This document shows, in pieces, positions 27,184-52,966 of a stretch of 64,000 nt of DNA (the first letter of the stretch is position 1; each line of letters opens with the position of its first letter). A program made the translations under genes and the position numbers. Source of the DNA: a virus; the UHGV virus genome UHGV-1359874. The stretch is one strand, 5' to 3'. The notes beneath the pieces were generated by a model. That model saw only the letters and a list, made by a program, of their open reading frames with translations. It was not told the origin of the DNA and did no database searches.

Positions 27184-27204
27184 ATAATTAAAAGGAGTGA
27201 GATT

Positions 27205-27495: not shown

Positions 27496-27510
27496 GGATG
27501 TGTATTTTAT

Positions 27511-28211: not shown

Positions 28212-28218
28212 GTAAATT

Positions 28219-28806: not shown

Positions 28807-28841
28807 TTATTATGTAATATTCTTTTAAGGAGGTTTACATA

Positions 28842-29108
28842 ATGAGTCATTCATACAAAAAATTTTATATATGCAGACAAGATAAAGAAGATTATCATTA
28901 TCTGAACCGGCAACTCAGACACGATAAACTTAGGGAAATCCCCAAAGGTGCTCATTATCGCAAAGTAAATCCTAAATGGCGGGAATGGCAATATCTTTGG
29001 ACCGAAGAACAAGCGATGCGGCAGTATGAGAATGATGTAAGGTTACAATCTCGATATTCATATTTAGAATGGATGCAATACTGGGCGAGACACATCCAAC
29101 GTAAATAA
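28842..29108 (+). CDS. hypothetical basic protein
   Basis: ORF track; RBS aaggaggt. Confidence 0.45.
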   Translation: MSHSYKKFYICRQDKEDYHYLNRQLRHDKLREIPKGAHYRKVNPKWREWQYLWTEEQAMRQYENDVRLQSRYSYLEWMQYWARHIQRK

Positions 29109-29172
29109 TGCGTTGGATGTGGCATCATACCGAAAATGATTTTAATTTAATTATTTTCAAACGTTCTTTGAA

Positions 29173-29982
29173 ATGTTTTGTGATTTTCCACGAACACTAA
29201 AAGAAAGGCGAGAAAAGAAATTGAACAAATTTACAAAGTTTATTGCCGCAATAGGAATTTGCGGCTGTTTTATTATGCCAGCGCTAGCCGCTGAGCCGGA
29301 AGAGGTGGACTATAAGGCGTTTTTCGACGCGACCGCCGCAACAATTACAGAAGTTGATACCTCAGACATTGATAGCTCTTGGGTTGTAAGAAATGAAAAA
29401 GAAGAGCTTCTTTTTATTACTGATGTAATAAACGAAGTTCAGTATGTTGATGGTTATGTGAATCTACGAGCTGTTCCTACAATAGATTCAGAACCTGTTG
29501 ATATACTCTGCCCCAATGATACAGTCACAAGAGTTGGTGAGTCTGAGTATGGTTGGGCTATTGTTAAAGTAAATGATGAATATTATTTTATGTGGAATGA
29601 ATATTTACTTGATGAACCTATTCCAGAACCCGAACCTGTAAAAAAGGCGGTGTCCCAGTCGAAAACTGCATCCAGCGAGTTCTATGCAGATAACATCTCT
29701 GCAGATTATTCGGCAAGTTACTTCAAGCGCATGGGCGTTATTAATTGGGGTGGATATAGATGGACTTGGTATAGTAGTAAAATTTTGCCAGGTGGAGGCT
29801 TGAATATCCCAGGCCGTCACAGTAATGATTCTGGTTATATTTGCGATGAAAATGGATATATTTGCTTAGCTTCAAATGATTTAGCTAAAGGTACAGTAGT
29901 GAGTACACCTTTTGGCTCAGCTGGAAAAATTTATGACTGCGGAGTAGCATCAGATACTTTAGATGTTTATGTCGCATGGTGA
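29173..29982 (+). CDS. secreted cell-wall-binding protein, SH3b-like + C-terminal 3D-like domain (candidate peptidoglycan hydrolase)
   Basis: signal/TM FIAAIGICGCFIMPALAA; SH3b-like VNLRAVPT...GWAIVKVNDEYYFMW; C-terminus TPFGSAGKIYDCGVASDTLDVYV resembles 3D domain. Confidence 0.55.
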   Translation: MFCDFPRTLKERREKKLNKFTKFIAAIGICGCFIMPALAAEPEEVDYKAFFDATAATITEVDTSDIDSSWVVRNEKEELLFITDVINEVQYVDGYVNLRAVPTIDSEPVDILCPNDTVTRVGESEYGWAIVKVNDEYYFMWNEYLLDEPIPEPEPVKKAVSQSKTASSEFYADNISADYSASYFKRMGVINWGGYRWTWYSSKILPGGGLNIPGRHSNDSGYICDENGYICLASNDLAKGTVVSTPFGSAGKIYDCGVASDTLDVYVAW

Positions 29983-30079
29983 GACCTGCGCATTGATTTT
30001 TGACAATTTAATAATTTTATGATATAATAATTATACAAAAAATAAAGGTAATAAATTTATTATATCAGGAGGATGCTTC

Positions 30080-30991
30080 ATGGAAGAATTTATTGACTTG
30101 GAAGGCTTGGAAGATGAGAGCTTGGCTGAACTGGACAATAGAACAGAGGATGAAGCATCCTCTTTTTCTGTCTCTAGTTTGAAGCAATATTTGAAGAATA
30201 TTGGTTCGATCAATCTATTGACACCTGATGAGGAGATGCGGCTTGCGATCCAAGTCAAAGCAGGAGATAGCGCCGCCCGCGATAAGTTGGTAGAAGCAAA
30301 TCTACGTCTTGTAGTTTCTATTGCAAAGAAATATCAAAATATTGGAGTTCCGCTTCTCGATTTGATTCAAGAGGGTAATTTAGGTTTGATGCGAGCAGCA
30401 GATAAATTTGAACCTGATAAAGGTTATAAATTTTCTACTTATGCTACATATTGGATTAGGCAGTTTATTGGTAGAGCTATTGCTGACCAGGGTAGAACTA
30501 TTCGTGTTCCTGTTCACATGATTGATTCTATCAATAGTATGAAAAAGAAAGAGAATGAATTTGTTGTTGAGCATGGTAGAAAGCCTACTGATAAAGAACT
30601 TGCGGCAGTGCTAGGCGTAACCGCCAAAGAGGTTAAGGCTATGAAGAATTATTCCCAGAAGTCTTCTAGTCTTGATGTTCAGATTGGTGATGATGAGGAT
30701 ACATCTCTTGGTTCTTTGATCGAGGACGATATGTTTGACACGCCGGAAGCAGCATATAATAAAGTTGAAATTGTCAATACACTTAAATCTGTATTGAGTA
30801 CTCTTGATGAAAGAGAAGCGACTATTATTAAGATGCGGTTTGGCCTTGATGGTAAAGGGCCTAGAACTCTTGGTGAAGTAGGCGAAATTTTAAATCTTTC
30901 TAAGGAACGTATTAGACAGCTTGAAGCTAAGGCTTTGCGTAAACTGCGCCATCCTAGTAGAGCAAAAAAACTTCGTGACTTTATTGCTTAA
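30080..30991 (+). CDS. RNA polymerase sigma-70 family factor (regions 2, 3, 4)
   Basis: region 2 [35 protein letters not shown], region 4 [27 protein letters not shown]. Confidence 0.85.
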
Positions 30992-31008
30992 TTGATTTAT
31001 TAAAAAAT

Positions 31009-31037
31009 AAATGTTATAATATATACATAAGAAAGAG
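31009..31037 (+). promoter_or_regulatory. conserved extended -10 promoter element (TnTGTTATAATATATACATAAGAAAGAG); one of more than 20 copies
   Basis: near-identical copies at ~24895, 26815, 27835, 31389, 32310, 35035, 35835, 36875, 37355, 46360, 49482, 54025, 54235, 60480, 62808, 63243 (+) and ~13100, 15170, 20910, 21625 (-). Confidence 0.65.
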
Positions 31038-31079
31038 ATAAGAAATAAAAAATTCAAAACTTTTTCTTATGTATTATAT

Positions 31080-31156
31080 TCCCGTCTAGCTCAACTGGTT
31101 AGAGCATCCGACTTATAATCGGAAGGTTCGGTGTTCAAGTCACCGGGCGGGAACCA
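31080..31156 (+). tRNA. tRNA-Ile (anticodon UAU), CCA encoded
   Basis: hand-folded cloverleaf: acceptor tcccgtc/ggcggga, D gctc/gagc, loop cttataa, T cggtg-ttcaagt-caccg. Confidence 0.7.
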
Positions 31157-31264
31157 TAACTCTTAACATGGATTTTGCTGGTTTAAACTACTCCCGGCAC
31201 TTAGGTGATATGGAGCTTAATGGAAAAGAGTATAATAAGAAGCAAAGTAAAACCAGCTTTTAAT

Positions 31265-31351
31265 GCGGAGATAGTGTAACTGGTCAACACGCATCCCTTA
31301 CAAGGATGAGACATTTGCATTGTCAGGGTTCGAGTCCCTGTCCCCGCACCA
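31265..31351 (+). tRNA. class-II (long variable arm) tRNA; anticodon reads UAC as parsed; isotype uncertain
   Basis: acceptor gcggaga/tccccgc (1 mismatch), AC stem catcc/ggatg, loop cttacaa, 15-17-nt variable arm, T caggg-ttcgagt-ccctg, CCA. Confidence 0.5.
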
Positions 31352-31661
31352 CTAATTATAATATTTACTTTTTGACAATTTAAAAAATAAATGTTATAAT
31401 ATATACATAAGAAAGAGAAAGGAGCTTCTAAATGTATTACGAAAGTTATGCTTGTGAAATTCAGTCTGATGAAATTGCTAGTGTTTGGGCAGATTTTTAT
31501 AATGATATGGAGGCTTTTTTCAATGAAAATGAACAAAAGTGACAGAAAGAAATGCGACGACGAATTGCAAGAATATCTTCAGTTTAGACGTTGCGGATTT
31601 CAGGTAAAACCTAAAAAGGGACGAGGTTCTTATACTCGTAAAATTAAGCATAAATAAATAT

Positions 31662-31736
31662 GGCCCCATCTTCTAATGGTTAGGAAGCCGGCCTTTCACG
31701 CCGGCAATGCTGGTTCGAGTCCTGCTGGGGTCACCA
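31662..31736 (+). tRNA. tRNA-Glu (UUC)
   Basis: acceptor ggcccca/tggggtc, AC ccggc-ctttcac-gccgg, T-loop ttcgagt, CCA. Confidence 0.7.
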
Positions 31737-32066
31737 TGTACATTGTACTCTGAATTTAATCCGAGGCTGACAACGATTGAATTTAGAATGGTTTGTTTAG
31801 GAAACTACCATTTTAATAAGTATCCTTCTTGTTTCACTTGAATGTCCCTAACAAGTAAAAGAATGGCGATGTTCACCAAACCCAAGGTTAGAGGGTTGAC
31901 TTTCTGGACGAGGTCTTTACTCTCCATGGTTTTTAAGAAGAAAACCTAAAAAATAGAAAAGATAAGTTTGTAAGGCAAGGGTTAGATCGAAACTCTTCCA
32001 GCGGGTCTGGGTTTGTAGCTTTACCCCACTTCCCGCCAAAAGCTACAATTTCATATTGCGCTGGTG

Positions 32067-32140
32067 GAGCAATGGTAGCTCGCCGCTTTCATAGGGCGGA
32101 GACGAAGTTCAAATCTTTCCGGGCGCAACCATTGGGACAT
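32067..32140 (+). tRNA. tRNA-Met/Ile2 type (CAU)
   Basis: D gagc/gctc, AC ccgct-ttcatag-ggcgg; acceptor and T stems each carry one mismatch. Confidence 0.5.
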
Positions 32141-33029
32141 TTTGTCTCACCTTTTAATGAGTTTTAGTGAGCCTTCTCGGGGATATGGCTCCTGGTTGAA
32201 AAATTGCTTCTACCTGAACCCCGCTAACCTTTTTTAACGGAGACTAAAGAATATAGTTCAAATGTTTTATAACAGAACGCCGTTTATATACAAAGTCTTT
32301 TGATTTCTTAAAAAATATATGATATAATATATATGTAATCAAGAGATAAGCAACTGATATTAGCCGCCCTCCGCTGAATAAGCCTGGCAGTTGCGATTTC
32401 GACTAAGAGCTATGTTGAACCTTGAAAATTTCTGTAACTCAGTGAAGAACGCACACCAGCGTGCTGAGAATCCGACCCTGCTTACGGGTTTCCAAGAGTT
32501 TCTTATTTAGAAGGATACTTCTAAATGGGATAGAGTTAAATGCGGTGACGTATTTAAACTCCATCAAACGGTGGACTTGGAAGGGTGGATGTGCAGATAT
32601 TATCGCAATCAAAGGCAGTTGTCTTATCGCGGTCATAATAGAAAGTTCGTTTAACAGACGGGCCGAATCCTAGTTAGGTAGGAGCTGGTTACTCTTACAA
32701 TCCTAGGAAATACCAACAAGATCGTTTGCTGTGATGTTAAAGTAATTTAACTATAAGATAAGGTCAGACGTACAAGTAGCTCAAGGCATTTGAAGATGGT
32801 TTCATACTAAATTAGCTGATAATGAATTATTATAAGAATAATTTTCTGAATGGTGAGTGAAAGTTGCTCGTAGTCAGTCGAGTACAGGATTTGACGAGTT
32901 ATCGTTGGAATAAGAAGTTAGGGGTCATGACCCGAAGCTCAGACTTATTTCCCTGTTAGCCTAATATGATTGAAGATAATTATTTGTAGGGTGAAGGCCC
33001 ACAGAGTTTTTTGGTTCAGTTGAATATAT

Positions 33030-33341
33030 GCCGCGGTGGCGAAATTGGTAAACGCAATGGACTTTTGACTTAGCAAACGTTAAAAGAGAGTGCCTAGAAG
33101 GAAACTTTTAGAGTAGAAACTGGCTAAAACGGCGAATGGCTAAGAGAACGCCGTGCTAAATTTCAAGAGTAATCTTGAATAAATGTGTAGAGAGCATACA
33201 CCAGTTGCCTAAGTTCTTATGAATATGGTAAAGACGTGCTCCAGACTACAACGTATCTTTTGATACGGCCATGGTGACATGGAGTAGTAAGAAAATCCAT
33301 CGGCTTCGGCCTTGGGGGTTCGACTCCCCTCTGCGGCACCA
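33030..33341 (+). tRNA. tRNA-Leu (UAA) interrupted by a 227-nt group-I-like intron (33065-33291) between anticodon-loop positions 34 and 35
   Basis: 5' half: acceptor gccgcgg, D-arm, AC stem atgga + ctt. 3' half: aaaa + tccat, class-II variable hairpin ggcttcggcc, T ggggg-ttcgact-cccct, acceptor ctgcggc, A-CCA. Intron has R-like element CAGACTACAACG, P8-like hairpin ccatg-gtga-catgg, ends in G. Confidence 0.7.
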
Positions 33342-33559
33342 CCAAATTAAAATAATCAAGGAAATTAAAGCCATTTTGTAAAGGAACGTACAAAGGTCGA
33401 GTCGTAAGAAAAACAAAAGTAGTCCGTAAGGAATGGTAAACTTGATATGACCAAGTAAGTTATTGCCAGTTGATTATTTTAATTTTTTACTTATCTATCC
33501 AAGAGTAGAATAAGCTGAATCTGCGGCGAGGCGGATGTAAACAATACCTCGTTAAATAT

Positions 33560-33635
33560 TGCCTTGTAGTCCAGTTGGTAGAACGGCGGACTGTTAATCC
33601 GTATGTCGTGGGTTCGAGTCCCACCGGGGCAGCCA
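33560..33635 (+). tRNA. tRNA-Asn (GUU)
   Basis: acceptor tgccttg/cggggca, AC loop ctgttaa, T gtggg-ttcgagt-cccac, CCA. Confidence 0.7.
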
Positions 33636-33664
33636 TAAATCTTTTTAAATTAGGAGGTGAAAAA

Positions 33665-33901
33665 TTGAAGATTCGTAATCTAAAGGACATTAATTCTTTT
33701 AAAAATGCTATTGCGCAGTGTCATGGAGAAGTCTGGCTTGAATCTGTATATGGTGATAAGTATAATTTAAAGTCTGAACTTTCTCAGTATGTTGCTATGG
33801 CGGATTTGCTAAGAGATAAGAAAGAGAATTTAGAATTGTTTGCTAGACTTCCTGAAGATCAAGCTATTCTAATGGATTTTCTTAGAACTCTTGAAGATTA
33901 A
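33665..33901 (+). CDS. small hypothetical protein (~78 aa, TTG start); listed ORF 33575..33901 overlaps tRNA-Asn so its 5' part is not coding
   Basis: RBS aggaggtg 7 nt before TTG at ~33665. Confidence 0.4.
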   Translation: MKIRNLKDINSFKNAIAQCHGEVWLESVYGDKYNLKSELSQYVAMADLLRDKKENLELFARLPEDQAILMDFLRTLED

Positions 33902-33913
33902 TTTCTTCAATAT

Positions 33914-34052
33914 GCGTTTATAGCTCAGTTGGTAGAGCACCGCACTTGTTAGGATAGTTTAAAGAAAAATCTCTTTGAGGATATAAGTTCAAATCTTATT
34001 TCTAACTCCATTAATGCGATGGTCGGGAGTTCGAGTCTCCCTAAGCGCACCA
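33914..34052 (+). tRNA. tRNA (probably Lys, UUU) carrying a 63-nt tRNA-like minihelix insert (33948-34010) in the anticodon loop
   Basis: outer: acceptor gcgttta/taagcgc, canonical D-arm tagctcagttggtagagc, AC stem ccgca/tgcga, T gggag-ttcgagt-ctccc, A-CCA. Removing 33948-34010 gives loop cttttaa. Insert: stem gttagga/ttctaac (7 bp, perfect), T-arm ataag-ttcaaat-cttat, T-CCA. Confidence 0.55.
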
Positions 34053-34246
34053 TTAAAATCTTATATAGACACATACAGCAATGAATATTTTAATAGCTTT
34101 TAAAAAATATTCACTTTTTACTGTGATTTTTATATTGATGGTTTGTTTTTATTCTTTCATTTTGTTTGACCCCTCCTTTCATTACAAATTTGTTTGAGTG
34201 TCTAGTTTAAAAAATAAAAAAGTAAGTATAATATAAAAGAAAAAAT

Positions 34247-34331
34247 GAGCGAGTGTTGGAATAGGAATACAACTCTGCCTTAGAAGCAGAGGTCGAAAGG
34301 CATAAGGGTTCGAGTCCCTTCTCGTTCACCA
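34247..34331 (+). tRNA. tRNA-Leu (UAG)
   Basis: acceptor gagcgag/ctcgttc, AC tctgc-cttagaa-gcaga, long variable arm, T aaggg-ttcgagt-ccctt, CCA. Confidence 0.7.
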
Positions 34332-34386
34332 ACTGTGAAAATCATGCGTGTTTATTTCACTAAACACATTGTAATAGCCAAATTAT

Positions 34387-34477
34387 CTTGAGGTACCCAA
34401 GTGGTTGAAGGGGGCGCATTGCTAATGCGCTAGTAGGGTAACACCTAGCGAGAGTTCAAATCTCTCCCTCAAGGCCA
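34387..34477 (+). tRNA. tRNA-Ser (GCU)
   Basis: acceptor cttgagg/cctcaag perfect, AC gcgca-ttgctaa-tgcgc, long variable arm, T gagag-ttcaaat-ctctc, G-CCA. Confidence 0.7.
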
Positions 34478-34506
34478 TAACTTTTATCAAAAGGAGAATT
34501 ACGCCA

Positions 34507-34647
34507 ATGTTTACTATTGAACAGTCTATTGCTGCTAAGAAGAATCGTCTGAATAAATTGATTGGACGCGGCGATCGTAATGTTAAGTGTCCTGGAGTTA
34601 TTCGTAAGTTGCGGCGAGAAATTCGCAATCTTGAAACTCAGCGTTAA
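34507..34647 (+). CDS. small basic protein (~46 aa) inside tRNA island
   Basis: ATG with RBS aaaaggagaa; under ORF-track size cut-off. Confidence 0.35.
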   Translation: MFTIEQSIAAKKNRLNKLIGRGDRNVKCPGVIRKLRREIRNLETQR

Positions 34648-34660
34648 TCGCTGAGAATAT

Positions 34661-34755
34661 GCGTCCGTACCGAAATGGTTATAACGGCCTAGCCTTGAAA
34701 GCTTGTGTGTCAGCTTGTATCTGACATGGGGGTCCGAATCCCTCCGGGCGCGCCA
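34661..34755 (+). tRNA. tRNA-Ser (UGA)
   Basis: acceptor gcgtccg/cgggcgc, loop cttgaaa, long variable hairpin gtcag/ctgac, unusual T-loop tccgaat. Confidence 0.55.
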
Positions 34756-34780
34756 TTTAGACCTTTACAGCAATTATTTT

Positions 34781-34833
34781 TTCTAAGAAGAATTGGGTTC
34801 CATGTGTCGGTGATTCGAGTTCATCCTAGAAGG
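34781..34833 (+). ncRNA. free-standing mini tRNA-like element (terminal stem ttctaag/cctagaa 6/7 bp + T-arm ggtga-ttcgagt-tcatc; no D or anticodon arm)
   Basis: hand fold; preceded by recurrent leader motif acagcaatt. Confidence 0.35.
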
Positions 34834-34839
34834 TAAAAC

Positions 34840-34920
34840 TTCTTGTAGCTCAGTTGGTAGAGCAATGATTATTTAGAACTTATGGGTCTAGTTAAATATG
34901 GGCGGGACGCTGCCCATTAT
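34840..34920 (+). pseudogene. truncated tRNA (5' acceptor cttcttg + canonical D-arm tagctcagttggtagagc; no matching 3' half)
   Basis: D-arm identical to that of 33914 tRNA; no complementary acceptor strand before tRNA-Pro. Confidence 0.4.
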
Positions 34921-34996
34921 CCGGGTGTAGCGCAGTTGATAGCGCACAGGTTTTGGGTACCTGGGGTCGTGAGTTTAAGTCTCACCACTCGGACCA
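34921..34996 (+). tRNA. tRNA-Pro (UGG)
   Basis: acceptor ccgggtg/cactcgg, AC caggt-tttgggt-acctg, T gtgag-tttaagt-ctcac, A-CCA. Confidence 0.7.
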
Positions 34997-35102
34997 TCTA
35001 GGTGAATCCACATTTCACATATTTTATTGACAAAATTAAAAAAATTTGTTATAATATATATAGAAAAAACAAAGAAAGTAATTTTGTTAATGGAGAAAAG
35101 TT

Positions 35103-35288
35103 ATGTATATTTGTCCAACTTGTAACAAAAGTTTTGATACTGAGGAAAGAATCCAAAAGCATTTCTTAAAGTGTTGGAAAGAAAAAAATCCTTATTATCA
35201 GTCTAAGCCAGCTCCTAGAAGTGAAGATGTTGAGACTGTTGAAATTAATGATGATGTAGCAAACTTTTTTAATTCTTTAATGCGGTGA
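35103..35288 (+). CDS. small C2H2-like zinc-finger protein
   Basis: CPTC...HFLKC pattern; extended -10 motif at ~35035. Confidence 0.45.
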   Translation: MYICPTCNKSFDTEERIQKHFLKCWKEKNPYYQSKPAPRSEDVETVEINDDVANFFNSLMR

Positions 35289-35294
35289 TGTAAA

Positions 35295-35648
35295 ATGCAG
35301 GAAGTAAAAATTAAAACACATTTAATAATTACCTCAATTCATAATGAATTTAATATGAACTGGTGTGGTAAGATTATTAATACCAAACCTAAGTTTGAAA
35401 ATAATAAACCTGTATTTGTCATTATTGGAAGTCTTGGACGAATGGAAGTAAATACTGTTGACATGAAATATCTTGAGGAATGTGCTAAGAAACTCACATA
35501 TCCAAGAGGTAGACAAGCAGTTACCACTGATAAAGCAAGAATTTATATTGTTGAAGAAGATGGTAAAGAAACTTTGATGGGTGTTTTAACTCATAATAAT
35601 GTTAAGCAGTATGCGCCAATGTTTGATCCAGTCGGATACAGGAATTAA
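35295..35648 (+). CDS. hypothetical protein (117 aa)
   Basis: ORF track. Confidence 0.5.
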   Translation: MQEVKIKTHLIITSIHNEFNMNWCGKIINTKPKFENNKPVFVIIGSLGRMEVNTVDMKYLEECAKKLTYPRGRQAVTTDKARIYIVEEDGKETLMGVLTHNNVKQYAPMFDPVGYRN

Positions 35649-35657
35649 TCTTTTTAT

Positions 35658-35803
35658 AGGGTAATAGCCAAGTGGTAAGGCATGGGACTTTCAAGATTTA
35701 GTATAAAGAAGTATTTCTATTATGAATAGAAGGTATTGGTTCAAATCCAATAATCTTGACTAGACTCCCAGATGCGTTGGTTCAAATCCAACTTACCCTG
35801 CCA
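35658..35803 (+). tRNA. tRNA (Gln UUG or Glu UUC after excision) carrying a ~71-nt tRNA-like minihelix insert (35692-35762) in the anticodon loop
   Basis: outer: acceptor agggtaa/ttaccct perfect, D gcc/ggc, AC stem tggga/tccca, T gttgg-ttcaaat-ccaac, G-CCA. Insert: stem caagatt/aatcttg (7 bp perfect), tagtataaagaag..., T-arm attgg-ttcaaat-ccaat, A-CUA; homologous to insert at 33948. Confidence 0.55.
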
Positions 35804-35984
35804 TATAAAAAATAAACAAAAAAAATGATTTTTATTAAAATTTTTGATATAATATATATATAAGATAAAGAAAGACACTCACAGCAATTTTTTTATGGTT
35901 TACAAAAAATTCTGCAAAAATTTTTTAAGAAGGTTCGATTCCTTTAAATAATGTGTCTTGGTTATTTAATATATGCGCGAGTGT

Positions 35985-36070
35985 CGGAATGGTAGACGAG
36001 GTGGTCTCAAAAACCACTGCGATAATTCGCATAAGGGTTCGAGTCCCTTCTTGCGCACCAGCGGGAACCC
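35985..36070 (+). tRNA. tRNA-Leu (CAA)
   Basis: acceptor gcgcgag/cttgcgc, AC gtggt-ctcaaaa-accac, long variable arm tgcgataattcgcat, T aaggg-ttcgagt-ccctt, A-CCA. Confidence 0.7.
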
Positions 36071-36130
36071 GCAACAATTAAAAACATTATTTTGGAAGTC
36101 ATTTTAACCTTCCAAAAAAATCGTAAATAT

Positions 36131-36205
36131 GCCGAGTTAGTTTAATGGGAAAACAATCCTCGTTTGCGGATTATGATAAGTTCGATTCTTATCACACGGC
36201 CATGT
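36131..36205 (+). tRNA. irregular tRNA or tRNA-like (possible UUU anticodon in an 8-nt loop; one acceptor mismatch)
   Basis: D gttt/aaac, AC aatcc-tcgtttgc-ggatt, T ataag-ttcgatt-cttat, no encoded CCA. Confidence 0.35.
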
Positions 36206-36301
36206 ATGATTCGGATAGTATAATGGAATTACAATCGGTTGTAGACCGGAAGATACCAGTTCGATTCTGGTGAAGAATCTTTAAATTGATTTTTTTAAAA
36301 G

Positions 36302-36347
<46 letters not shown>

Positions 36348-36405
36348 AGACAAACAGCAATATAATATTTTTAACTGGCTATTGTTAAAAAGTCTCTTGT
36401 AACTC

Positions 36406-36480
36406 GCTAGTGTGGCGCAACGGTGGCGCAGTCGATTTGTAATCGAAGGGCTGGAGGTTCAATCCCTCTCACTAGCTCCA
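36406..36480 (+). tRNA. tRNA-Thr (UGU)
   Basis: acceptor gctagtg/cactagc perfect, D gcgc/gcgc, loop tttgtaa, T ggagg-ttcaatc-cctct, T-CCA. Confidence 0.7.
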
Positions 36481-36821
36481 GCTTTCATAAACACATCTTT
36501 TAAAATTAAATTAGACCCCAACAGCAATTTTAAGCTCTGATAAAGCAGTGATTATGGGTTCAAATCCTATTGTAACAATTTTTGTTATATAGCATAATGG
36601 TAATGCACTAAAAAGGGGTCTAGATATGCACCTATCGTATAACAGTTAATATAGAAGCCTTCCAAGCTTCGGACGCGAGGGCGGTACTCGCTAGGTGCTC
36701 CATAAGACGTAAACCGCAACTTTTTAAAAATAATAAGATTTCAAGCATTTGAGAAGTATTGAAAAAAGATTTCTTCCTAAGATACGTCTTGAAAAAATAA
36801 TATTATAGAGATCTTTTTAAA

Positions 36822-36858
36822 GCCCATTAGCGAAAAGTAGCTAACGGGCAATTTTTTT
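36822..36858 (+). terminator. rho-independent terminator closing the tRNA island
   Basis: gcccattagc...gctaacgggc + T7. Confidence 0.6.
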
Positions 36859-36919
36859 ATATATTGATTTTTTATTAAATTTTTGTTATAATATTAATAG
36901 AAGAGAGAGGGGATTTTAA

Positions 36920-37255
36920 ATGAAACTTTGGATTGATGATGTGCGGCAGCCGCCTGATGAGTCTTGGACCTGGGTAAAAAGTGTGGATGAAGCTAAGATT
37001 TATTATACTCAATGCACCCGTCCTTATCATAATGTGTATGTTACACCTGCTATTACTGAAATTTCTCTTGACCATGATGCTGGTGATTATGCTAGTATGG
37101 GTGGCGATTATATTCGTTTTTTAGACTGGCTTGAGAAAAAGGCGATTATTAAGAATTATCAGATTGATACACTTTTTACTATTCATTCTAGAAATCCAGT
37201 GGGAAAATATAATATGGAAAATATTATCCGCAAAAATCATTGGAGGTATATGTAA
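36920..37255 (+). CDS. hypothetical protein (111 aa; MKLWIDDVRQPP...ISLDHDAG motif)
   Basis: ORF track; RBS agagagggg; followed by possible 27-aa TM peptide ORF 37257-37340. Confidence 0.5.
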   Translation: MKLWIDDVRQPPDESWTWVKSVDEAKIYYTQCTRPYHNVYVTPAITEISLDHDAGDYASMGGDYIRFLDWLEKKAIIKNYQIDTLFTIHSRNPVGKYNMENIIRKNHWRYM

Positions 37256-37439
37256 AATGACTGAGTTTGTTATTGGTGTTTGGGTTGGTGTAGCCTGTTA
37301 TGGGGTTTGGCGAATTATTTATGAAATTTTTTTTCATTGATTTTTAAAAAAATTTTTGTTATAATATATAATATAAAAACAAGAGATAAGAATCAATAAA
37401 AGGTTATGAAAATAACCATCTCAGTAAAGGAGAAAATAT

Positions 37440-46961: not shown

Positions 46962-47719
46962 TGATGATTAATGATAAAGAGATTATGAATACTCTCCAAA
47001 ATTATTATAATGTTGCAGCTTGTGATTATAATGTATTCGGGGTTTTCCTATATGGTAGCCAGAACTATGGCTTAAGTACTCAATATTCTGATGTTGATGC
47101 TGTTGCTATTGTATTTCCTACTTATAGAAATCTTATTTTTAAAGAAAAGGATATTTATAAAGAGGTTACTGGCGGCAATGGTAATTTTCATTATCAAGAT
47201 GTGAGAGATTTCTTTAATCAGCTTCGCAAAGGCAATCCTAATGCGATTGAAATTCTTACTACTGATTATTATATTATTAATCCTGATTATACTTATTATT
47301 GGAATAGTATAAGAAATAATAAGAATGTTATTTGGCAGGCTAATCCTAGTGCAACTTTTAAAGCTCTTGAAGGAATGTATAATTCTTATATGAAGAAATT
47401 TGATTCTGATAATAAACCTAAAAATTTTATTGGAGCTTGCCGCATTCTTATGTTAGCTGACCAGTTTGTTGATTTTATTCAGTGGGGAAATGAAGAACCT
47501 TCTTTTATGCTGGAAGTCTGTGATAGCTGGGAACTAATTGGTTATAAACTTGGTAAATTGGAAATTTTAAATAGTACCATTCAAATTAAGAAAGAAAAGG
47601 CTAAGTCTCTCTTTCATGAATGTTTAGATAATTACGAAAATCCTGAAGCAATCAATATTCTTAGTCTTCAGGATGGCATTATGATTCGGTATCTAAAGGA
47701 GGTAGTTGATAATGCTTAA
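46961..47719 (+). CDS. predicted nucleotidyltransferase (GS-x9-SDVD motif)
   Basis: FGVFLYGSQNYGLSTQYSDVDAVAIVFPT. Confidence 0.55.
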   Translation: MMINDKEIMNTLQNYYNVAACDYNVFGVFLYGSQNYGLSTQYSDVDAVAIVFPTYRNLIFKEKDIYKEVTGGNGNFHYQDVRDFFNQLRKGNPNAIEILTTDYYIINPDYTYYWNSIRNNKNVIWQANPSATFKALEGMYNSYMKKFDSDNKPKNFIGACRILMLADQFVDFIQWGNEEPSFMLEVCDSWELIGYKLGKLEILNSTIQIKKEKAKSLFHECLDNYENPEAINILSLQDGIMIRYLKEVVDNA

Positions 47720-48953
47720 TTCTAATGGAACTCGCGAGCTAGTGTACGTCGTGAAAATTGATGAAATTAAACCAATCGCAGGACGAGATCGGGTAGAGTG
47801 CGCAGTTGTAGGCGGATGGACTGTTATGGTTCGCAAAAACGAGCTGAAGGTGGGAGATTACGCCGTTTATTTTGAGATTGATTCTAAGTTGCCTGAGTGC
47901 GCACCTTTTGAATTTCTCGCGGCGAAGCATTATAAGATTAAGACTCAGCGCTATAAGACTCCTGATGGGCCTTTTTATTCTCAGGGTCTAGTTATGTCTT
48001 TTAAGGATTTCGTTGATGCCTCTGGCCGTGTTCCCACATGGCTAGCTGAAATCAATGCTCGTATCGCAAGTGGCGAAGATGTAACTCATACTTTCTTGAC
48101 TGAAGTTCTAGGTGTTACCTATGCAGATCCTGCAGATAATACCCGTAAAGCTAAGTCTGTAGATAAATATACTAAAATGACTCAGCGTCACCCCGAATTG
48201 TTCAAGAAGCCTTGGGCTAAGTGGATGATGCGGCGTTCCTGGGGCCGCAAGGTAATGTTTGTTTTCTTTGGCAAGAAAAAGGACAAGAAGAATGGCTGGC
48301 CGGTTGGCAAGTTCCCTGGTGTAGCAAAAACCGATCAGGAACGAGTTGAGAATATGACCTGGGTCCTGAATGATAAAACCCCGTTTATTGTTACCCAGAA
48401 ATGCGATGGTTCTAGCGGAACTTATATTCTTGAAAAGAAGCGTTTTGGATATGAATTTTATGTATGTAGCCGCAATGTCCGCATGGTTAATGAAAATCAG
48501 GATTGCTTCTATTCTACTAACTATTATTGGGAAGTTGCAAAGAAGTATGATATTGAAAACAAAATGAAAGATTGGTTGAAGAAAAATCCAAAAGCAACTT
48601 TTGTTTGTTGGCAGGGTGAAATCTGTGGCCCCAATATCCAGAAGAATCCTCAGCATCTTTCTCATACCCATTTCTTCTGTTTCCATTGGACTGATAGTAT
48701 TAATGGTCGCCTTGATATTCGTGAAGCCGCAAAGCTTTGGAAGAATTATCAGATGACTGTTGTTCCTATTGTTGGAACTGTTGTATTTCCTGATACTCTA
48801 GAAGAACTAAAAGAAGCTGCTGATGGAACTTATGATTCTTCTGTTTGTGAGGGTAATACTAACTGTAAACGAGAAGGTCTAGTTTACTATAAAACTACTG
48901 AACCTACTTTTAGCTTCAAGAATGTTAGTCGAGAATATCTTATGAATCATTAA
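47706..48953 (+). CDS. ATP-dependent polynucleotide (probably RNA) ligase
   Basis: motif I VTQKCDGSS (KxDG), motif IV-like EGLVYYK; adjacent kinase and phosphoesterase genes imply RNA repair. Confidence 0.6.
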   Translation: MIMLNSNGTRELVYVVKIDEIKPIAGRDRVECAVVGGWTVMVRKNELKVGDYAVYFEIDSKLPECAPFEFLAAKHYKIKTQRYKTPDGPFYSQGLVMSFKDFVDASGRVPTWLAEINARIASGEDVTHTFLTEVLGVTYADPADNTRKAKSVDKYTKMTQRHPELFKKPWAKWMMRRSWGRKVMFVFFGKKKDKKNGWPVGKFPGVAKTDQERVENMTWVLNDKTPFIVTQKCDGSSGTYILEKKRFGYEFYVCSRNVRMVNENQDCFYSTNYYWEVAKKYDIENKMKDWLKKNPKATFVCWQGEICGPNIQKNPQHLSHTHFFCFHWTDSINGRLDIREAAKLWKNYQMTVVPIVGTVVFPDTLEELKEAADGTYDSSVCEGNTNCKREGLVYYKTTEPTFSFKNVSREYLMNH

Positions 48954-51718: not shown

Positions 51719-52966
51719 ATGAAATTTTATGATACTTGTAGTCTATTGAATTTGCAGGAGAAAGCTTTTGAACCTTTTAAAGAATTTGCCATTAGCACTA
51801 TTACACTTCAAGAGCTAGAAAACATTAAAACTTCTGCACATAAGGATGCGGAAACCAAGTATAAAGCCCGCAAATTGACAAGATTGTTGGCTGAAAATGA
51901 AAAAACATATACTGTATTTCCTTATGATGCTAACGTTAAATATGCTCAACAGTTACTTGGATTTGATGATAGTAATGATACCCGTATTATTTCAACAGTA
52001 AAAGAAGCAACTAGTAATGGCAAGCATGATTTACTGTTTGTAACTGACGATATTTGCTGCTATCACTTAGCTAAAATCGCGGGAATTCAGGTGAAATTGG
52101 GAAGTAGCGAGCCTGAAGAGGATTATACTGGGTTTAAAATTGTGCGGCTAAGTGAAGATAAGCTTGCTGATTTTTATACTAACTATTTTAGTGAAGCCTA
52201 TATTGATTTTATGATGGTTCCTAATGAATATCTTATTATTCAGGATGCAACAACTGGTGAATATATTGACCAGTATAAACTTAATAAAGAGTATCAATTT
52301 GAAGAAGTTCCTTACCCAGTATTCAACAGTGAAATGTTCGGTATGATTAAGCCAAAAGATGTATTCCAGCGATGTGCAATGGATTCAATTAAGTCTAATC
52401 AGGTTACTATGCTTGGAGGGCCTGCGGGTTCAGGTAAAACCGCATTAGCTCTAGCTTATATGTTTGAACAACTCGAAAAAGGTAAGTTTGATAAGTTAGT
52501 TCTTTTTTGTAATCCTATCGGAGCTAAAAACTGCGCGAAGCTTGGCTATTATCCCGGTACTGTCTTAGATAAGGTATTGTCAACTCAGGCAGGCCACGTT
52601 TTGTCAAGCAAGTTAGGTAGCGAAACAGAAGTAGAAAGACTTATTGCGGAAAATAAGTTAGAAATTATTCCCGCAGTTGACGCTCGTGGTTATGAAGTAC
52701 CTTCTCATTGTGGTTGTTATGTTCTTGAGGCTCAGAACCTTACCAGTGATACACTTCGTCTATTGCTGCAACGTGTCGCCGCAGATACAAAAGTCATTGT
52801 AGATGGTGATAGAGTTGAGCAACTTGATATGGAAATTTATAATGAAGATAATGGCATGAAAAAAATGTCAAAAGTATTCAAAGGTACTTCTGTTTACGGT
52901 CAGATTGATCTACAAAATATTTACCGCTCTGAAATTGCTAACATTGCGGAACAGATGAAATATTAA
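51719..52966 (+). CDS. phoH: PIN-domain + PhoH-like ATPase
   Basis: Walker A GGPAGSGKTALALAY; N-terminal PIN-like MKFYDTCSLLNL...FVTDD. Confidence 0.85.
   Translation: MKFYDTCSLLNLQEKAFEPFKEFAISTITLQELENIKTSAHKDAETKYKARKLTRLLAENEKTYTVFPYDANVKYAQQLLGFDDSNDTRIISTVKEATSNGKHDLLFVTDDICCYHLAKIAGIQVKLGSSEPEEDYTGFKIVRLSEDKLADFYTNYFSEAYIDFMMVPNEYLIIQDATTGEYIDQYKLNKEYQFEEVPYPVFNSEMFGMIKPKDVFQRCAMDSIKSNQVTMLGGPAGSGKTALALAYMFEQLEKGKFDKLVLFCNPIGAKNCAKLGYYPGTVLDKVLSTQAGHVLSSKLGSETEVERLIAENKLEIIPAVDARGYEVPSHCGCYVLEAQNLTSDTLRLLLQRVAADTKVIVDGDRVEQLDMEIYNEDNGMKKMSKVFKGTSVYGQIDLQNIYRSEIANIAEQMKY

Follow-up and report, generated by a model that had tools for sequence, protein, structure and literature searches.

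Interrupted tRNA genes in phages have been described before, in the Lak megaphages, where the introns were called 'enigmatic' and left unexplained (Devoto et al. 2019, Nat Microbiol; PMC6784885, Fig. 4, Supplementary Table 6). There the anticodon loops are interrupted by inserts of ~80-115 nt, intron-less alleles are found, conservation is higher in the intron than around it, and the authors wrote that the intron of a tRNA-Thr 'itself may encode a tRNA' (PMC6784885). The Lak introns were assigned to position 37/38 by the eukaryotic setting of tRNAscan, and no boundary rule or mechanism was proposed (PMC6784885). The sequences of the four listed introns (Tyr, Phe, Thr and Gly) were re-read here, and all four end in an inner acceptor stem, a T-arm, the acceptor 3′ strand and a tail of 1-3 nt. 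An additional stretch of ~25-30 nt, with a 5′ hairpin (TACAxx...) and a AAATTAAA linker, precedes this inner tRNA-like part, and a CCA tail is absent. The general phenomenon is already published; what is described here is a boundary rule and a CCA-ended form, in which the insert comprises just an inner tRNA-like sequence, from +1 to a 3′ end that is usually CCA76.

Group I introns share with this form a location in the anticodon loop of bacterial-type tRNA genes, mobility and presence/absence polymorphism, but they are >200 nt in length, whereas the inserts described here are 50-85 nt and have no catalytic core. The bulge-helix-bulge (BHB) introns are also small, non-self-splicing introns of the anticodon loop, removed by protein enzymes (EndA/Sen), with the exons rejoined by an RNA ligase (RtcB or Trl1). 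In yeast and plants the enzymes include a kinase, a phosphoesterase and an ATP-dependent ligase, similar to those encoded in the window. BHB splice sites lie in two 3-nt bulges with a 4-bp helix between them, canonically at 37/38. In contrast, a bulge-helix-bulge is absent from the present family, whose two junctions adjoin one and the same end of the inner acceptor stem. The site is at 34/35 to 36/37, inside the anticodon, and the recognition element would be the intron's own tRNA shape. To our knowledge, there is no known splicing endonuclease in bacteria or their phages. In mascRNA/MALAT1, mitochondrial tRNA punctuation and RNase P minihelix substrates, a tRNA-shaped module within a longer transcript directs RNase P and RNase Z to cut precisely at the +1 and the 3′ end of the module. 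The flanks there are not re-ligated, whereas here they are the halves of another tRNA. In the T4 Pnkp/Rnl1 system a tRNA with a break in its anticodon loop, classically tRNA-Lys(UUU), is rejoined by a phage RNA ligase; however, the PrrC break is damage by a host defence nuclease, and here the break would be programmed by the phage's own intron.

The window analyzed is a 64,000 nt stretch of the viral genome UHGV-1359874. Its only tRNA-Lys and tRNA-Gln genes, as detected by ARAGORN within the DNA seen, are the two nested genes of Table 1. The initial annotation had proposed this nested architecture, and its coordinates and sequences proved correct; it had also proposed that removal of the inserts restores Lys(UUU) and Gln(UUG) tRNAs. 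With the inserts removed in silico, ARAGORN calls tRNA-Lys(ttt) of 76 nt and tRNA-Gln(ttg) of 75 nt. Without the insert, both outer genes are canonical tRNAs with a cloverleaf, a 7-nt loop, U33, a purine at 37 and CCA, and the outer Gln body fits the tRNA-Gln type, with a GCCAAGYGGTAAGGCA D-arm and G73. The insertion site is 34/35, inside the anticodon, in the Lys gene and one nt away, at 35/36, in the Gln gene. The Lys spliced-junction 25-mer is found exact and uninterrupted in tRNA-Lys genes of 11 other IMG/VR contigs, and the Gln 25-mer is uninterrupted on 38 other IMG/VR contigs. The tRNA cluster lies among other tRNA-like ncRNAs, i.e., YrlA-like permuted tRNA-like units and ROOL, and is adjoined by a gene for a DUF2828/vWA RNA-binding protein.

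Table 1. Nested tRNA genes, an uninterrupted tRNA gene and RNA-repair-type genes of the window
Feature	Position	Strand	Evidence
tRNA-Ile(UAU), uninterrupted, empty-site allele	31080..31156	+	ARAGORN; side-by-side comparison with L001
tRNA-Lys(UUU), whole interrupted gene, 139 nt	33914-34052		
5′ exon of tRNA-Lys(UUU): acceptor 5′ strand to loop nt 32-34 (CTT), including D-arm and anticodon-stem 5′ strand	33914..33947	+	sequence; ARAGORN on spliced form; structural parse
Insert 1, tRNA-like, 63 nt	33948..34010	+	Rfam tRNA; fold; covariance model; covariation
Insert 1, acceptor pairing	33948-33954 with 34000-34006		
Insert 1, D-arm	33957-33970		
Insert 1, mini-hairpin CTC-TTT-GAG (3 bp, 3-nt loop) at anticodon-arm position	33971-33979		
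Insert 1, T-arm, loop TTCAAAT	33983-33999		
Insert 1, tail TCCA	34007-34010		
3′ exon of tRNA-Lys(UUU): loop nt 35-38 (TTAA) to ACCA, including anticodon-stem 3′ strand, variable loop, T-arm and acceptor 3′ strand	34011..34052	+	sequence; ARAGORN; structural parse
tRNA-Gln(UUG), whole interrupted gene, 146 nt	35658-35803		
5′ exon of tRNA-Gln(UUG), ending in loop nt 32-35 (CTTT)	35658..35691	+	sequence; ARAGORN on spliced form; structural parse
Insert 2, tRNA-like, 71 nt	35692..35762	+	Rfam tRNA; ARAGORN; precursor fold; homologs
Insert 2, acceptor pairing	35692-35698 with 35752-35758		
Insert 2, D-arm	35701-35714		
Insert 2, anticodon-like arm, loop TTATGAA	35715-35731		
Insert 2, T-arm	35735-35751		
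Insert 2, tail ACTA	35759-35762		
3′ exon of tRNA-Gln(UUG): loop nt 36-38 (GAC) to GCCA	35763..35803	+	sequence; ARAGORN; structural parse
RlaP-like Pol-beta nucleotidyltransferase, adjoining the ligase; probable part of an RNA-repair cassette	46961..47719	+	Pfam RlaP; PHROG 388
ATP-dependent RNA ligase, N-terminal OB domain, Rnl5-like; candidate exon-sealing enzyme	47706..48953	+	Pfam; PHROG 968; solved relative
P-loop polynucleotide-kinase-like gene	49890-50405	+	PHROG 505 polynucleotide kinase; Pfam AAA_33
Metallophosphoesterase gene	50402-50950	+	PHROG 547 phosphoesterase; Pfam Metallophos_2
PIN-PhoH protein, endoRNase and RNA helicase; speculative 3′-junction cutter	51719..52966	+	Pfam PIN_4 and PhoH; PHROG 2765

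Both inserts are tRNA-like: they exceed the gathering score of the Rfam tRNA family RF00005 (29 bits), with 37 bits over 33948-34007 for insert 1 and 45.1 bits over 35692-35759 for insert 2, and they have acceptor, D and T helices with covariation support. Insert 1 scores 66.6 bits with covariance model R1. The earlier reading of the inserts as minihelices holds for the terminal stem and the T-arm, but a bare minihelix is wrong, as a D-arm is also present. Likewise, the block ta-gtWtaaagaa noted as shared by the two inserts is real, but it is the inner D-arm, and the inserts therefore exceed minihelices.

A structural scan of ~2.7 Mb of fetched phage loci (numbered L001 etc.) yielded 37 nested tRNAs, with 32 well-supported distinct inserts and 9 anticodon types, against none in a reversed-sequence control, which is more than chance would give. 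The inserts thus form a distinct element family, as initially proposed. Of 120 loci from bacterial and archaeal genome collections picked up by the two-T-loop seed pattern of the scan, none could be parsed as a nested tRNA, and by this comparison the family is specific to phages. Two nested tRNAs each are present in L126, L187, L211, L235, L246, L259 and L261, and three in L001. In L001, L126, L182 and L204, the DUF2828/vWA gene is no more than a few kb away from nested tRNAs.

For the boundary test, the insert start was set at the inner +1 and the outer loop was fixed at 7 nt; the tail is what is left over and was not imposed by the search. The tail is NCCA (N73-CCA) in 24 of the 32 distinct inserts, with ACCA the dominant form, and is one substitution from NCCA in 5 more, the ACTA of the window among them. 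The boundaries of the insert are thus those of a mature inner tRNA-like RNA, +1 on the 5′ side and, in these 24, the CCA 3′ end. The outer insertion site is after position 34, 35 or 36, and removal of the insert gives a tRNA in every case (32/32). The restored loop always has 7 nt, with U33 and a purine at 37, and its anticodon agrees with the tRNA body. The base that precedes the 5′ cut, N(-1), is U in 27/32, and a pyrimidine precedes the insertion site in 31/32. Bacterial RNase P prefers U at -1. It should be noted that the 3′ boundary is not uniform: it follows N73 in the Asn inserts and N74 in L004, L005 and L007, with ACTA, ACAA and ACCG tails elsewhere.

The family of CCA-terminated tRNA-like introns is defined by an insert that begins at inner +1, extends through N73 and a CCA-type tail, is located after outer nt 34, 35 or 36, and leaves a 7-nt loop on removal. 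Both window inserts belong to it, with TCCA at 34/35 and ACTA at 35/36, the latter reading ACCA in the homologs from L246 and L259. They are not Lak-type introns, as nothing precedes their inner +1 and their tails are TCCA and ACTA. They are also not decoding tRNAs. Insert 1 has only a 3-bp/3-nt hairpin in place of an anticodon arm, and no tRNA is called in it by ARAGORN. Insert 2 is called as tRNA-His(atg), with an anticodon AUG that is odd because of A34. Across the family, ARAGORN calls just 5/32 inserts as tRNAs; the remaining 27/32 have no usable anticodon arm, this arm being degenerate, unlike the acceptor, D and T parts.

The compensatory changes reported initially for the stems were confirmed, as all three inner helices covary across the family. 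Pairing is found in 96.8% of cells (acceptor 97.4%, D 95.0%, T 97.1%), compared with 63.5% in shuffles and at most 48% with partners slid, and both-side changes are seen in 15 of the 16 inner pairs; the D-stem played no part in selecting the sequences. The conserved parts of the inserts are those read by end-processing enzymes. The outer genes display the same type of change: between the Gln gene of the window and those of L246 and L259, which have a homologous intron, the outer acceptor, anticodon and T stems differ by compensatory pairs and the loop remnants CTTT and GAC are unchanged. By these alignments, the outer tRNAs are kept intact over evolutionary time. The inserts have a GC content of 25-27%, versus 49-60% in the ordinary tRNAs of the phage, which looks like relaxed constraint outside the stems.

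Thermodynamic folding agrees with the pairings first proposed in the isolated inserts and in the whole Gln precursor, whose MFE structure is a cloverleaf within a cloverleaf, but not fully in the whole Lys precursor, where the MFE structure has the inner T-arm and lacks the inner acceptor stem. The z-scores are weak, -0.47 and -1.14 for the isolated inserts (not significant) and -2.15 and -2.50 for the composites; the inserts are AU-rich. Whole-precursor folds computed for the Gln gene, L001 Ile and L006 place the two junctions in a single internal loop, flanked by the anticodon stem of the outer tRNA and the acceptor stem of the inner one. This arrangement, together with sites at 34/35 and 35/36 and not 37/38, excludes an archaeal/eukaryal BHB intron, and no Pfam match to an EndA/Sen splicing endonuclease was detected among the selected window ORFs scanned. 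A group I intron is excluded as well, in agreement with the initial annotation: there is no RF00028 match, and the inserts are 63 and 71 nt as opposed to more than ~200 nt. An Rfam scan of 27000-38000 revealed no ribozyme or intron family at E<=1.

Empty and filled alleles can be compared directly at the tRNA-Ile(UAU) gene. In L001, a 97%-related phage, the ortholog (4535-4671) has exons identical to those of the uninterrupted window copy and carries a 60 nt insert, GCCTAGG...TCTAGGC-TCCA, exactly between nt 34 and 35. No target-site duplication is found when this insert is compared with the empty site of the window. In addition, an identical 55-nt intron body is present in the L004, L005 and L007 genes, which have differing 3′ exons. 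Because of this presence/absence polymorphism and the identical intron bodies in diverged genes, the element behaves like a mobile or selfish intron.

The window also encodes RNA-repair-type proteins. The ligase ORF is, by its domains, an RNA ligase-family nucleotidyltransferase (PF09414, 64 bits, cut-off 27; OB domain PF21189, 67 bits) and matches PHROG 968 (RNA ligase); its best solved relative is the Naegleria gruberi RNA ligase (E=8e-27). That enzyme, Rnl5, acts preferentially on nicks within duplexes and not on breaks in loops, which counts against the proposed sealing role. The adjoining ORF has a Pfam RlaP score of 18.4 bits, under the cut-off of 23, and matches PHROG 388 nucleotidyltransferase at 7.9e-18. 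The kinase-like protein and the phosphoesterase may serve as end-healing enzymes that allow heal-and-seal ligation. An association of RlaP with ligase has been described, and the gene kit of phage RNA-repair cassettes (ligase, RlaP, kinase and phosphoesterase) is the same as that of the window (PMC7824862). Co-occurrence of nested tRNAs with an RNA ligase was confirmed in the window and L001 only.

We consider that the inserts are tRNA-like introns taken out by RNase P and an RNase Z/E-type enzyme, with the exons sealed by the phage RNA ligase, and assign this a probability of about 0.5. The splicing itself, the nucleases that cut and the joining of exons by the phage ligase are what we infer. 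A single precursor transcript would present a small tRNA-like RNA within the anticodon of a normal tRNA, and the inner acceptor, T-arm and elbow would be recognized by the general tRNA-trimming enzymes. RNase P would cut directly 5′ of the inner +1 and leave a 5′ exon with a 3′-OH; a 3′-end endonuclease, of the RNase Z class or RNase E-like, would cut directly after the inner tail, i.e., after CCA where present and otherwise after N73 or N74, and leave a 3′ exon with a 5′-phosphate. The acceptor, D, T and anticodon stems of the outer tRNA would keep the exons together as a tRNA nicked inside the anticodon, and the ATP-dependent RNA ligase could seal the nick. The products would be mature tRNA-Lys(UUU) or tRNA-Gln(UUG) and a free tRNA-like RNA of 63 or 71 nt. 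Cuts of the RNase P/Z type followed by sealing, the route offered as speculation in the initial annotation, predict boundaries at the inner mature ends, as are seen.

Enzymes with the necessary 3′ cutting behavior are known. Archaeal RNase Z cuts CCA-containing precursors after the CCA and those that lack it after N73 (PMC7479834), the tRNase Z of T. maritima behaves in the same way (PMC3161902), and E. coli RNase E cuts exactly after CCA at proK/L/M (PMC5291269). RNase Z of the B. subtilis type, however, is strongly inhibited by CCA (PMC7479834), which counts against the model. The varied 3′ boundary is not obviously explained by one enzyme with one ruler, and RNase P alone cannot explain the Lak branch, with its extra 5′ nt.

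A less probable alternative is that splicing occurs by a dedicated heal-and-seal pathway and not by host RNase P/Z. An endoribonuclease, either the PIN-PhoH protein or one that is anticodon-nuclease-like, would cut both junctions; if the ends were a 2′,3′-cyclic phosphate and a 5′-OH, the phage kinase and phosphoesterase would heal them and the ligase would seal, as in yeast/plant tRNA splicing or T4 Pnkp/Rnl1. This variant is possible because a kinase-like protein and a phosphoesterase are encoded next to the ligase, and with the nucleotidyltransferase and PIN-PhoH genes the window has a complete kit. The sites, after nt 34-36 and past a pyrimidine in nearly all inserts, agree with the positions at which known anticodon nucleases cut, but the outer-loop site shifts among 34, 35 and 36. 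Varied tail lengths are easier to accommodate with a cut whose position does not depend on the distance to the inner elbow; on the other hand, a 5′ end that is always the inner +1 and a 3′ end that is mostly exactly CCA76 are signatures of tRNA end maturation and not of a nuclease that reads the outer loop, and the conservation of the inner D/T elbow is left without an explanation. Mycobacterial PhoH2 prefers dsRNA with an overhang ending in AC[A/U][A/U][G/C] (PMC7390352), and the Gln junction of the window, ACUA|G, is in line with this, but the dominant tail ACCA does not fit this motif.

Still less likely is that no splicing takes place and the precursor is a delivery vehicle, from which RNase P and 3′ processing would free the inner RNA and two tRNA halves as the functional products, or, left intact, a decoy or substrate for anticodon nucleases of the host or for a Ro-like/Y-RNA-like RNA quality-control system of the phage. 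The inner element of L006 is a full, canonical-looking tRNA-Lys(UUU) with CCA, so that inner RNAs can be genes themselves; however, most inserts lack a usable anticodon arm, and their low GC resembles relaxed constraint. The setting among YrlA-like units and ROOL, beside a DUF2828/vWA gene that recurs near nested tRNAs in four other loci, also suits such a role. Against it, for all 9 anticodon types and all 3 insertion positions the loop remnants add up to exactly 7 nt and give the cognate anticodon, the outer anticodon stems stay paired via compensatory change, and the window has no Lys or Gln tRNA other than the nested genes.

The least probable explanation is that a selfish tRNA-derived element has inactivated the tRNA genes and that the copies are recent pseudogenes, possibly after a mature tRNA-like RNA had been ligated into an anticodon loop opened by a nuclease and the product copied back into DNA. 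An insert that is a mature tRNA-like RNA from +1 to CCA-3′ is as expected from ligation of a processed RNA, the polymorphism between 97%-related phages and the 55-nt body shared by genes with different 3′ exons fit, and codon usage (AAA 248 vs AAG 222; CAA 59 vs CAG 102) gives no sign of a special need of the phage for these tRNAs. However, all outer genes are perfect tRNAs after insert removal, outer tRNAs with homologous introns have diverged solely by compensatory changes, several phages carry two nested tRNAs and L001 three, and no reverse transcriptase was found among the ORFs examined, which counts against a copy-back.

Many uncultured phages have the nested design, which suggests a splicing route not described so far, via ordinary tRNA-trimming enzymes and an RNA ligase. 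Tentatively, such elements could join group I and BHB introns as a third class of tRNA intron, one that is tRNA-shaped, has the ends of a mature tRNA, is excised by the universal end-maturation enzymes and has its exons rejoined by a phage RNA-repair ligase. If true, tRNA splicing by enzymes would exist in the bacterial/phage world. With the 5′-phosphate and CCA-3′-OH expected on it, the excised intron could be inserted again by the same ligase, into anticodon loops that defence nucleases have cut. Such re-insertion would be a spread between tRNA genes at the RNA level.

Both nested genes have the architecture described in the initial annotation, with sequences exactly as given there: an outer tRNA whose anticodon loop holds a tRNA-like insert, of 63 nt (33948-34010) in tRNA-Lys(UUU) and of 71 nt (35692-35762) in tRNA-Gln(UUG). 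Removal of the inserts had been said to restore the two tRNAs, and ARAGORN calls the in-silico spliced sequences tRNA-Lys(ttt) and tRNA-Gln(ttg). On the window itself, standard ARAGORN overlooks both outer tRNAs and reports the second insert as 'tRNA-His(atg)'; its intron mode wrongly calls the two genes Asn and Glu, with a shifted intron position. The Gln assignment is secure, as both the D-arm (GCCAAGYGGTAAGGCA) and G73 of the tRNA body are those of tRNA-Gln. The proposed exon junctions read ...GCACCGCACTT/TTAATGCGATGG for Lys and ...GCATGGGACTTT/GACTCCCAGATG for Gln, and 25-mers across them are found uninterrupted on other viral contigs, in tRNA-Lys on 11 and in tRNA-Gln on 38. The nested genes are the sole Lys and Gln tRNAs within the window; codon usage gives no special support for use of the outer tRNAs.

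Insert 1 consists of an acceptor stem (GTTAGGA/TTCTAAC), a D-arm (GTTT-AAAGAA-AAAT), a T-arm (ATAAG-TTCAAAT-CTTAT) and the tail TCCA, with a 3-bp/3-nt stub in place of the anticodon arm. Insert 2 has the acceptor stem CAAGATT/AATCTTG, the D-arm GTAT-AAAGAA-GTAT, the T-arm ATTGG-TTCAAAT-CCAAT and the tail ACTA, and here a 5-bp arm with the loop TTATGAA is present. The sequence block noticed earlier as common to both inserts is real and represents the D-arm of the inner structure. The inserts had been termed minihelices; the acceptor stem and T-arm are present, but these are not bare minihelices, since there is a D-arm and the Rfam tRNA threshold is exceeded (37 and 45.1 bits against a gathering score of 29). 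The GC content of the inserts is 25-27%, compared with 49-60% in the ordinary tRNAs of the phage. When a covariance model of the inserts was run on the window, ordinary tRNAs scored 15-38 bits and no further insert copies were found.

Relatives were collected in three ways: through a neighbouring ORF, by a scan for insert-bearing tRNA-Gln, and by a scan for pairs of T-loops separated by only 25-45 nt, a spacing absent from ordinary tandem tRNAs. ARAGORN intron mode, tried as a family finder, gave 226 calls on all fetched loci. Because these were mostly implausible and the window genes were mis-assigned, a structural parser with a reversed-sequence control was adopted. For the inner part, it looks for a T-arm with, immediately 3′ of it, a 7-nt strand able to pair with an upstream 7-mer; for the outer part, the anticodon stem, T-arm and acceptor stem must all be paired, with 7 loop nt in total, U33 and a purine at 37. 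Applied to both strands of 295 loci and the window (2.7 Mb), the parser detects 37 nested tRNAs (34 distinct inserts), compared with 0 in the reversed sequences, in agreement with the distinct element family that had been claimed. A scan anchored on the common D-arm and T-loop was discarded; it returned mainly tRNA-like 5′ and 3′ parts around unrelated sequence, some with ACAGCAAT, and only 2-3 true nested tRNAs. Among the matches listed, 120 viral loci with the two-T-loop pattern provided at least the greater part of the 37 nested tRNAs, whereas 0 of 120 matches listed from a bacterial/archaeal genome collection parse as nested. Therefore the architecture appears to be phage-specific in these samples, among the matches listed.

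Removal of 4 doubtful parser matches left 32 distinct inserts, with the outer anticodons UUU (9), UUG (8), UAU (6), GUU, UGG and UCC (2 each), and UCU, UGU and UUC (1 each). All 32 spliced outer sequences are called as canonical tRNAs, compared with 5 of the 32 inserts. The tail that separates the inner acceptor stem from the 3′ exon is NCCA in 24 inserts (ACCA 13, TCCA 6, GCCA 4, CCCA 1), one substitution away from NCCA in five (ACTA 2, in the window Gln insert and its ortholog in the close relative L001; ACAA 2; ACCG 1) and shorter in three (T, CC, TC). A further variant, TA, was spotted by eye in the viral loci L002 and L007 and is outside the 32. The NCCA tail did not form part of the parser requirements, except as a tie-breaker among equally scoring parses, and homologs of the window ACTA insert in the viral loci L246 and L259 read ACCA. 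Since the leftover tails are mostly NCCA, the insert is an inner tRNA-like RNA that extends from its own +1 to, mostly, a CCA end. The insertion site in the outer loop varies (after nt 34 in 13 inserts, 35 in 12 and 36 in 7). A pyrimidine precedes the insert in 31 of 32, and the first nucleotide of the 3′ exon is T in 15, A in 9, G in 8 and never C. In the viral locus L006 (13624-13775), nt 34 and 35 of a tRNA-Gln(UUG) are separated by a complete, canonical-looking tRNA-Lys(UUU) with an ACCA end. This is the clearest case of a tRNA inside a tRNA that was found.

In minimum-free-energy folds the proposed pairings are recovered in both isolated inserts and in the Gln precursor, which folds as a cloverleaf within a cloverleaf, a form also seen in two relatives; in the Lys precursor the inner T-arm is recovered but the inner acceptor stem is not. 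The z-scores of the isolated AU-rich inserts (-0.47 and -1.14) are not significant. Thus thermodynamics alone is weak evidence, and the argument is carried by covariation. An alignment of 28 inserts was scored on the acceptor, D and T helices, and standard pairs occupy 96.8% of cells, compared with 63.5 ± 1.6% in shuffles (0 of 500 reach the observed value); the covariation score is 0.92 against 0.26. Sliding the 3′ partners by 1-3 columns lowers pairing to 41-48%. Compensatory base change, proposed at first from the two window inserts, extends to 15 of 16 pairs, which have changed on both sides. Pairing in the acceptor and T stems is partly circular because both stems served in sequence selection; the D-stem, unused in selection, has 95% of its cells paired, and each of its four pairs shows double changes. 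Two acceptor pairs of the window Gln insert are replaced in its L246 homolog by pairs that differ in both bases (A-U to G-C; U-A to A-U). The structural interpretation of the initial annotation is correct: the nested tRNAs are real, non-random and part of a widespread family that is phage-restricted among the matches listed. The probability that these are a genuine family of tRNA-like inserts is put at more than 0.95.

An empty and a filled site can be compared in tRNA-Ile(UAU). The window gene (31080-31156) is uninterrupted, with the loop CTTATAA, and the L001 ortholog has identical exons with a 60-nt sequence, GCCTAGG...TCTAGGC-TCCA, exactly between CTT and ATAA; target nucleotides are neither duplicated nor lost. 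The neighbouring L001 protein is 97% identical to that of the window. The intron-less Lys and Gln genes of the viral locus L003 have diverged too far for an empty-site comparison with the window genes, and the Ile pair was used instead. An identical intron body is found in three tRNA-Gln genes (see table), where variation is confined to the 2-nt tail (CC, TC or TA). Intron lineages mostly keep to one tRNA type and site (GATGRAR in Lys at 34, CAAGRWT in Gln at 35, GTTTTAG in Ile at 36), and unrelated introns at different sites can occupy the same tRNA type. As far as sequence comparison can tell, this distribution is that of a mobile or homing intron.

With respect to the outer tRNAs, the loop remnants always add up to 7 nt with the cognate anticodon. 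Outer tRNAs with a homologous intron (window compared with L246 and L259) show compensatory pair changes in the acceptor, anticodon and T stems, and their loop remnants CTTT and GAC are identical. Two nested tRNAs are retained in several phages, and three in L001. These comparisons suggest that the inserts are probably removed at the RNA level, giving working tRNAs.

The table lists features of the window and of related loci. The GC content of the window is 35%, and its + strand carries a phage cluster of tRNA and non-coding-RNA genes at 28-37 kb, with 13 tRNAs called by ARAGORN. The remaining genes are typical of a large phage: a sigma factor, gyrase A and B, NAD-dependent DNA ligase, ThyX, tail genes and homing endonucleases. 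Neither BLAST nor a gyrase A protein search found a close relative among deposited phages, and the gyrase A search likewise found no close cultured phage. BLAST with the window region and both whole genes found no insert-bearing relatives in deposited phage genomes; thus no cultured experimental system was identified.

Features of the window and of related viral loci
Feature	Coordinates	Strand	Description
Nested tRNA-Lys, locus 1	33914-34052		GCGTTTA-TA-GCTC-AGTTGGTA-GAGC-A-CCGCA-CTT / 63-nt insert / TTAA-TGCGA-TGGTC-GGGAG-TTCGAGT-CTCCC-TAAGCGC-A-CCA
Nested tRNA-Gln, locus 2	35658-35803		AGGGTAA-TA-GCC-AAGTGGTAAG-GGC-A-TGGGA-CTTT / 71-nt insert / GAC-TCCCA-GATGC-GTTGG-TTCAAAT-CCAAC-TTACCCT-G-CCA
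tRNA-like gene, 8-nt anticodon loop	28114-28195	+	ARAGORN 'tRNA-??? anticodon gggt'; conserved at L001 1537-1617
ROOL RNA, full-length, 604 nt	32414-33017	+	Rfam RF03087, 322.9 bits; mid tRNA cluster
Five small-RNA-like units	34068-34200, 34757-34895, 35870-35960, 36346-36400, 36517-36627	+	each opens with approximately AGAC..ACAGCAAT
Two degenerate AT-rich tRNA-like genes	36132-36203, 36206-36282	+	Rfam tRNA 23.6 bits; 34.4 bits (partial match)
Perfect (TA)n run, ~40 nt	36306-36345		after the degenerate tRNA-like pair
DUF2828/DUF7788/vWA gene	37440-37883, 37867-38520, 38527-39639	+	PHROG 850, 'RNA-binding protein'; split in two by GIY-YIG/NUMOD3 homing-endonuclease ORF
HNH endonuclease ORF	46404-46961		just upstream of RNA-repair cassette
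RNA-repair cassette	46961-52966	+	RlaP-like NTase, Rnl5-like RNA ligase, P-loop polynucleotide-kinase-like protein, metallophosphoesterase, PIN-PhoH
RNA ligase	47706-48953		PF09414 and N-terminal OB domain; closest solved relative Naegleria gruberi RNA ligase, 8e-27
PIN-PhoH protein	51719-52966		in RNA-repair cassette
Identical 55-nt intron body in three tRNA-Gln genes	L004 ~1295-1424; L005 2093-2221; L007 6232-6363	- (L004, L007)	3′ exons different

The ROOL RNA has orthologs in L001 and L003. In L003 six uninterrupted tRNA genes (Lys, Ser, Ser, Thr, Gln, Ile; 4366-4861) with spacers of 3 nt adjoin it and also adjoin a short tmRNA-like Rfam match (7793-7873). The tRNA-like gene with the 8-nt anticodon loop may encode a tRNA with a four-base anticodon, or else a tRNA-like RNA without a decoding role; the anticodon loops of the two degenerate tRNA-like genes are abnormal. 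In the small-RNA-like units ACAGCAAT is found at 34075, 34767, 35881, 36354 and 36521, i.e., five of the seven window copies are inside 2.5 kb on one strand, and TTGACA/TATAAT-like promoters precede several units. A complementary ..GTCT 3′ arm closes the three units that were read through (34757-34895, 36346-36400 and 36517-36627), and the first and last of these each contain a tRNA-like module in circular permutation (T-arm, loop-capped acceptor stem, D-arm). The unit at 34757-34895 shows a weak match to YrlA (Y-RNA-like), with 30.5 bits, below the gathering score of 69. ACAGCAAT is also present inside tRNA-like genes of the unrelated phage loci L049 and L126. The L001 counterpart of the split DUF2828/vWA gene is a single intact 502-aa ORF (12788-14296), and relatives of the gene sit a few kb from nested tRNAs in the viral loci L126, L182 and L204. 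No Rfam match to a group I intron was detected around the GIY-YIG ORF, and a sequence search of solved structures gave no match of the DUF2828/vWA protein to Ro60.

The inserts are not group I introns, as had been argued from their small size, and they match no Rfam intron or ribozyme family at E<=1. Nor are they bulge-helix-bulge introns, since both junctions are at the same end of a single helix, at positions inside the anticodon. The closest published case is that of the Lak megaphages, in which 'enigmatic' tRNA introns, one possibly encoding a tRNA, were reported together with intron-less alleles and with no proposed mechanism (PMC6784885). In each of the four Lak introns compared (Tyr, Phe, Thr and Gly), the 3′ part consists of an inner acceptor, a T-arm, the acceptor 3′ strand and a short tail; unlike the window family, they have an extra 5′ hairpin and an A-rich linker and are without CCA (PMC6784885). 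Judged by these four, the Lak introns seem to be related to the window family yet separate from it, and their 5′ exon cannot be released by RNase P alone. In the literature after Devoto et al. 2019, the searchable part being incomplete, no description of the CCA-terminated family or its boundary rule was found.

Conservation in the inserts falls on the acceptor/T-arm stack, the D/T elbow and the 3′ NCCA, all features recognised by RNase P, RNase Z and other end-processing enzymes; the decoding-only part has decayed. The 5′ junction is always at the predicted RNase P site, and N(-1) is U, the preferred -1 base of RNase P, in 27 of 32. In the proposed mechanism RNase P would cut the 5′ junction at the inner +1, and a Z/E-type endonuclease would cut the 3′ junction exactly after CCA, or after N73 where CCA is absent. 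Archaeal RNase Z makes an endonucleolytic cut after CCA, or after N73 without CCA (PMC7479834); the 3′ cut is likewise documented for T. maritima tRNase Z, and a chloroplast enzyme cuts after C74 (PMC3161902). E. coli RNase E cuts at proline tRNAs after CCA (PMC5291269). This dual rule fits the N73 ends of the Asn inserts and the CCA ends of most inserts; the fit is poorer for N74 ends and for tails of ACTA or ACAA. Since cleavage by either RNase P or RNase Z leaves a 3′-OH and a 5′-phosphate, the product would be a tRNA nicked within the anticodon and held by its own stems. Such a nicked tRNA would be the type of substrate used by ATP-dependent RNA ligases, and the phage ligase would seal the exons. 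Ligase, NTase, kinase and phosphoesterase together are a known phage RNA-repair kit (PMC7824862). Relatives of the window ligase are found on 47 IMG/VR contigs, L001 being the only nested-tRNA contig among them, in a count that covers close relatives only and short loci. The route from RNase P through a Z/E-type cut to the phage ligase, first suggested as speculation, is the one that the comparative data favour, and its chances are considered about even.

A heal-and-seal route via 2′,3′-cyclic phosphate and 5′-OH ends may also be considered, because healing enzymes (the kinase-like protein and the metallophosphoesterase) are encoded in the window. More speculatively, PIN-PhoH might make the 3′ cut, as PhoH2 prefers double-stranded RNA with an overhang ending AC[A/U][A/U][G/C] (PMC7390352) and the window Gln junction reads ACUA/G.

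If the mechanism of RNase P, Z/E-type cut and ligase holds, the family would be a new class of tRNA intron. The general view is that introns in the tRNA genes of bacteria and their phages are all self-splicing, and that tRNA splicing by proteins is characteristic of archaea and eukaryotes. Nested genes are missed or wrongly labelled by standard tRNA finders, so that phage tRNA repertoires are under-counted. If the mechanism is true, ordinary tRNA-trimming enzymes and an RNA-repair ligase would suffice for splicing, and phage RNA ligases and repair cassettes would serve a housekeeping purpose as well as counter anticodon nucleases. It would also provide a candidate explanation for the 'enigmatic' megaphage tRNA introns of 2019, and a living model for the origin of protein-spliced tRNA introns and of split and nested tRNA genes.
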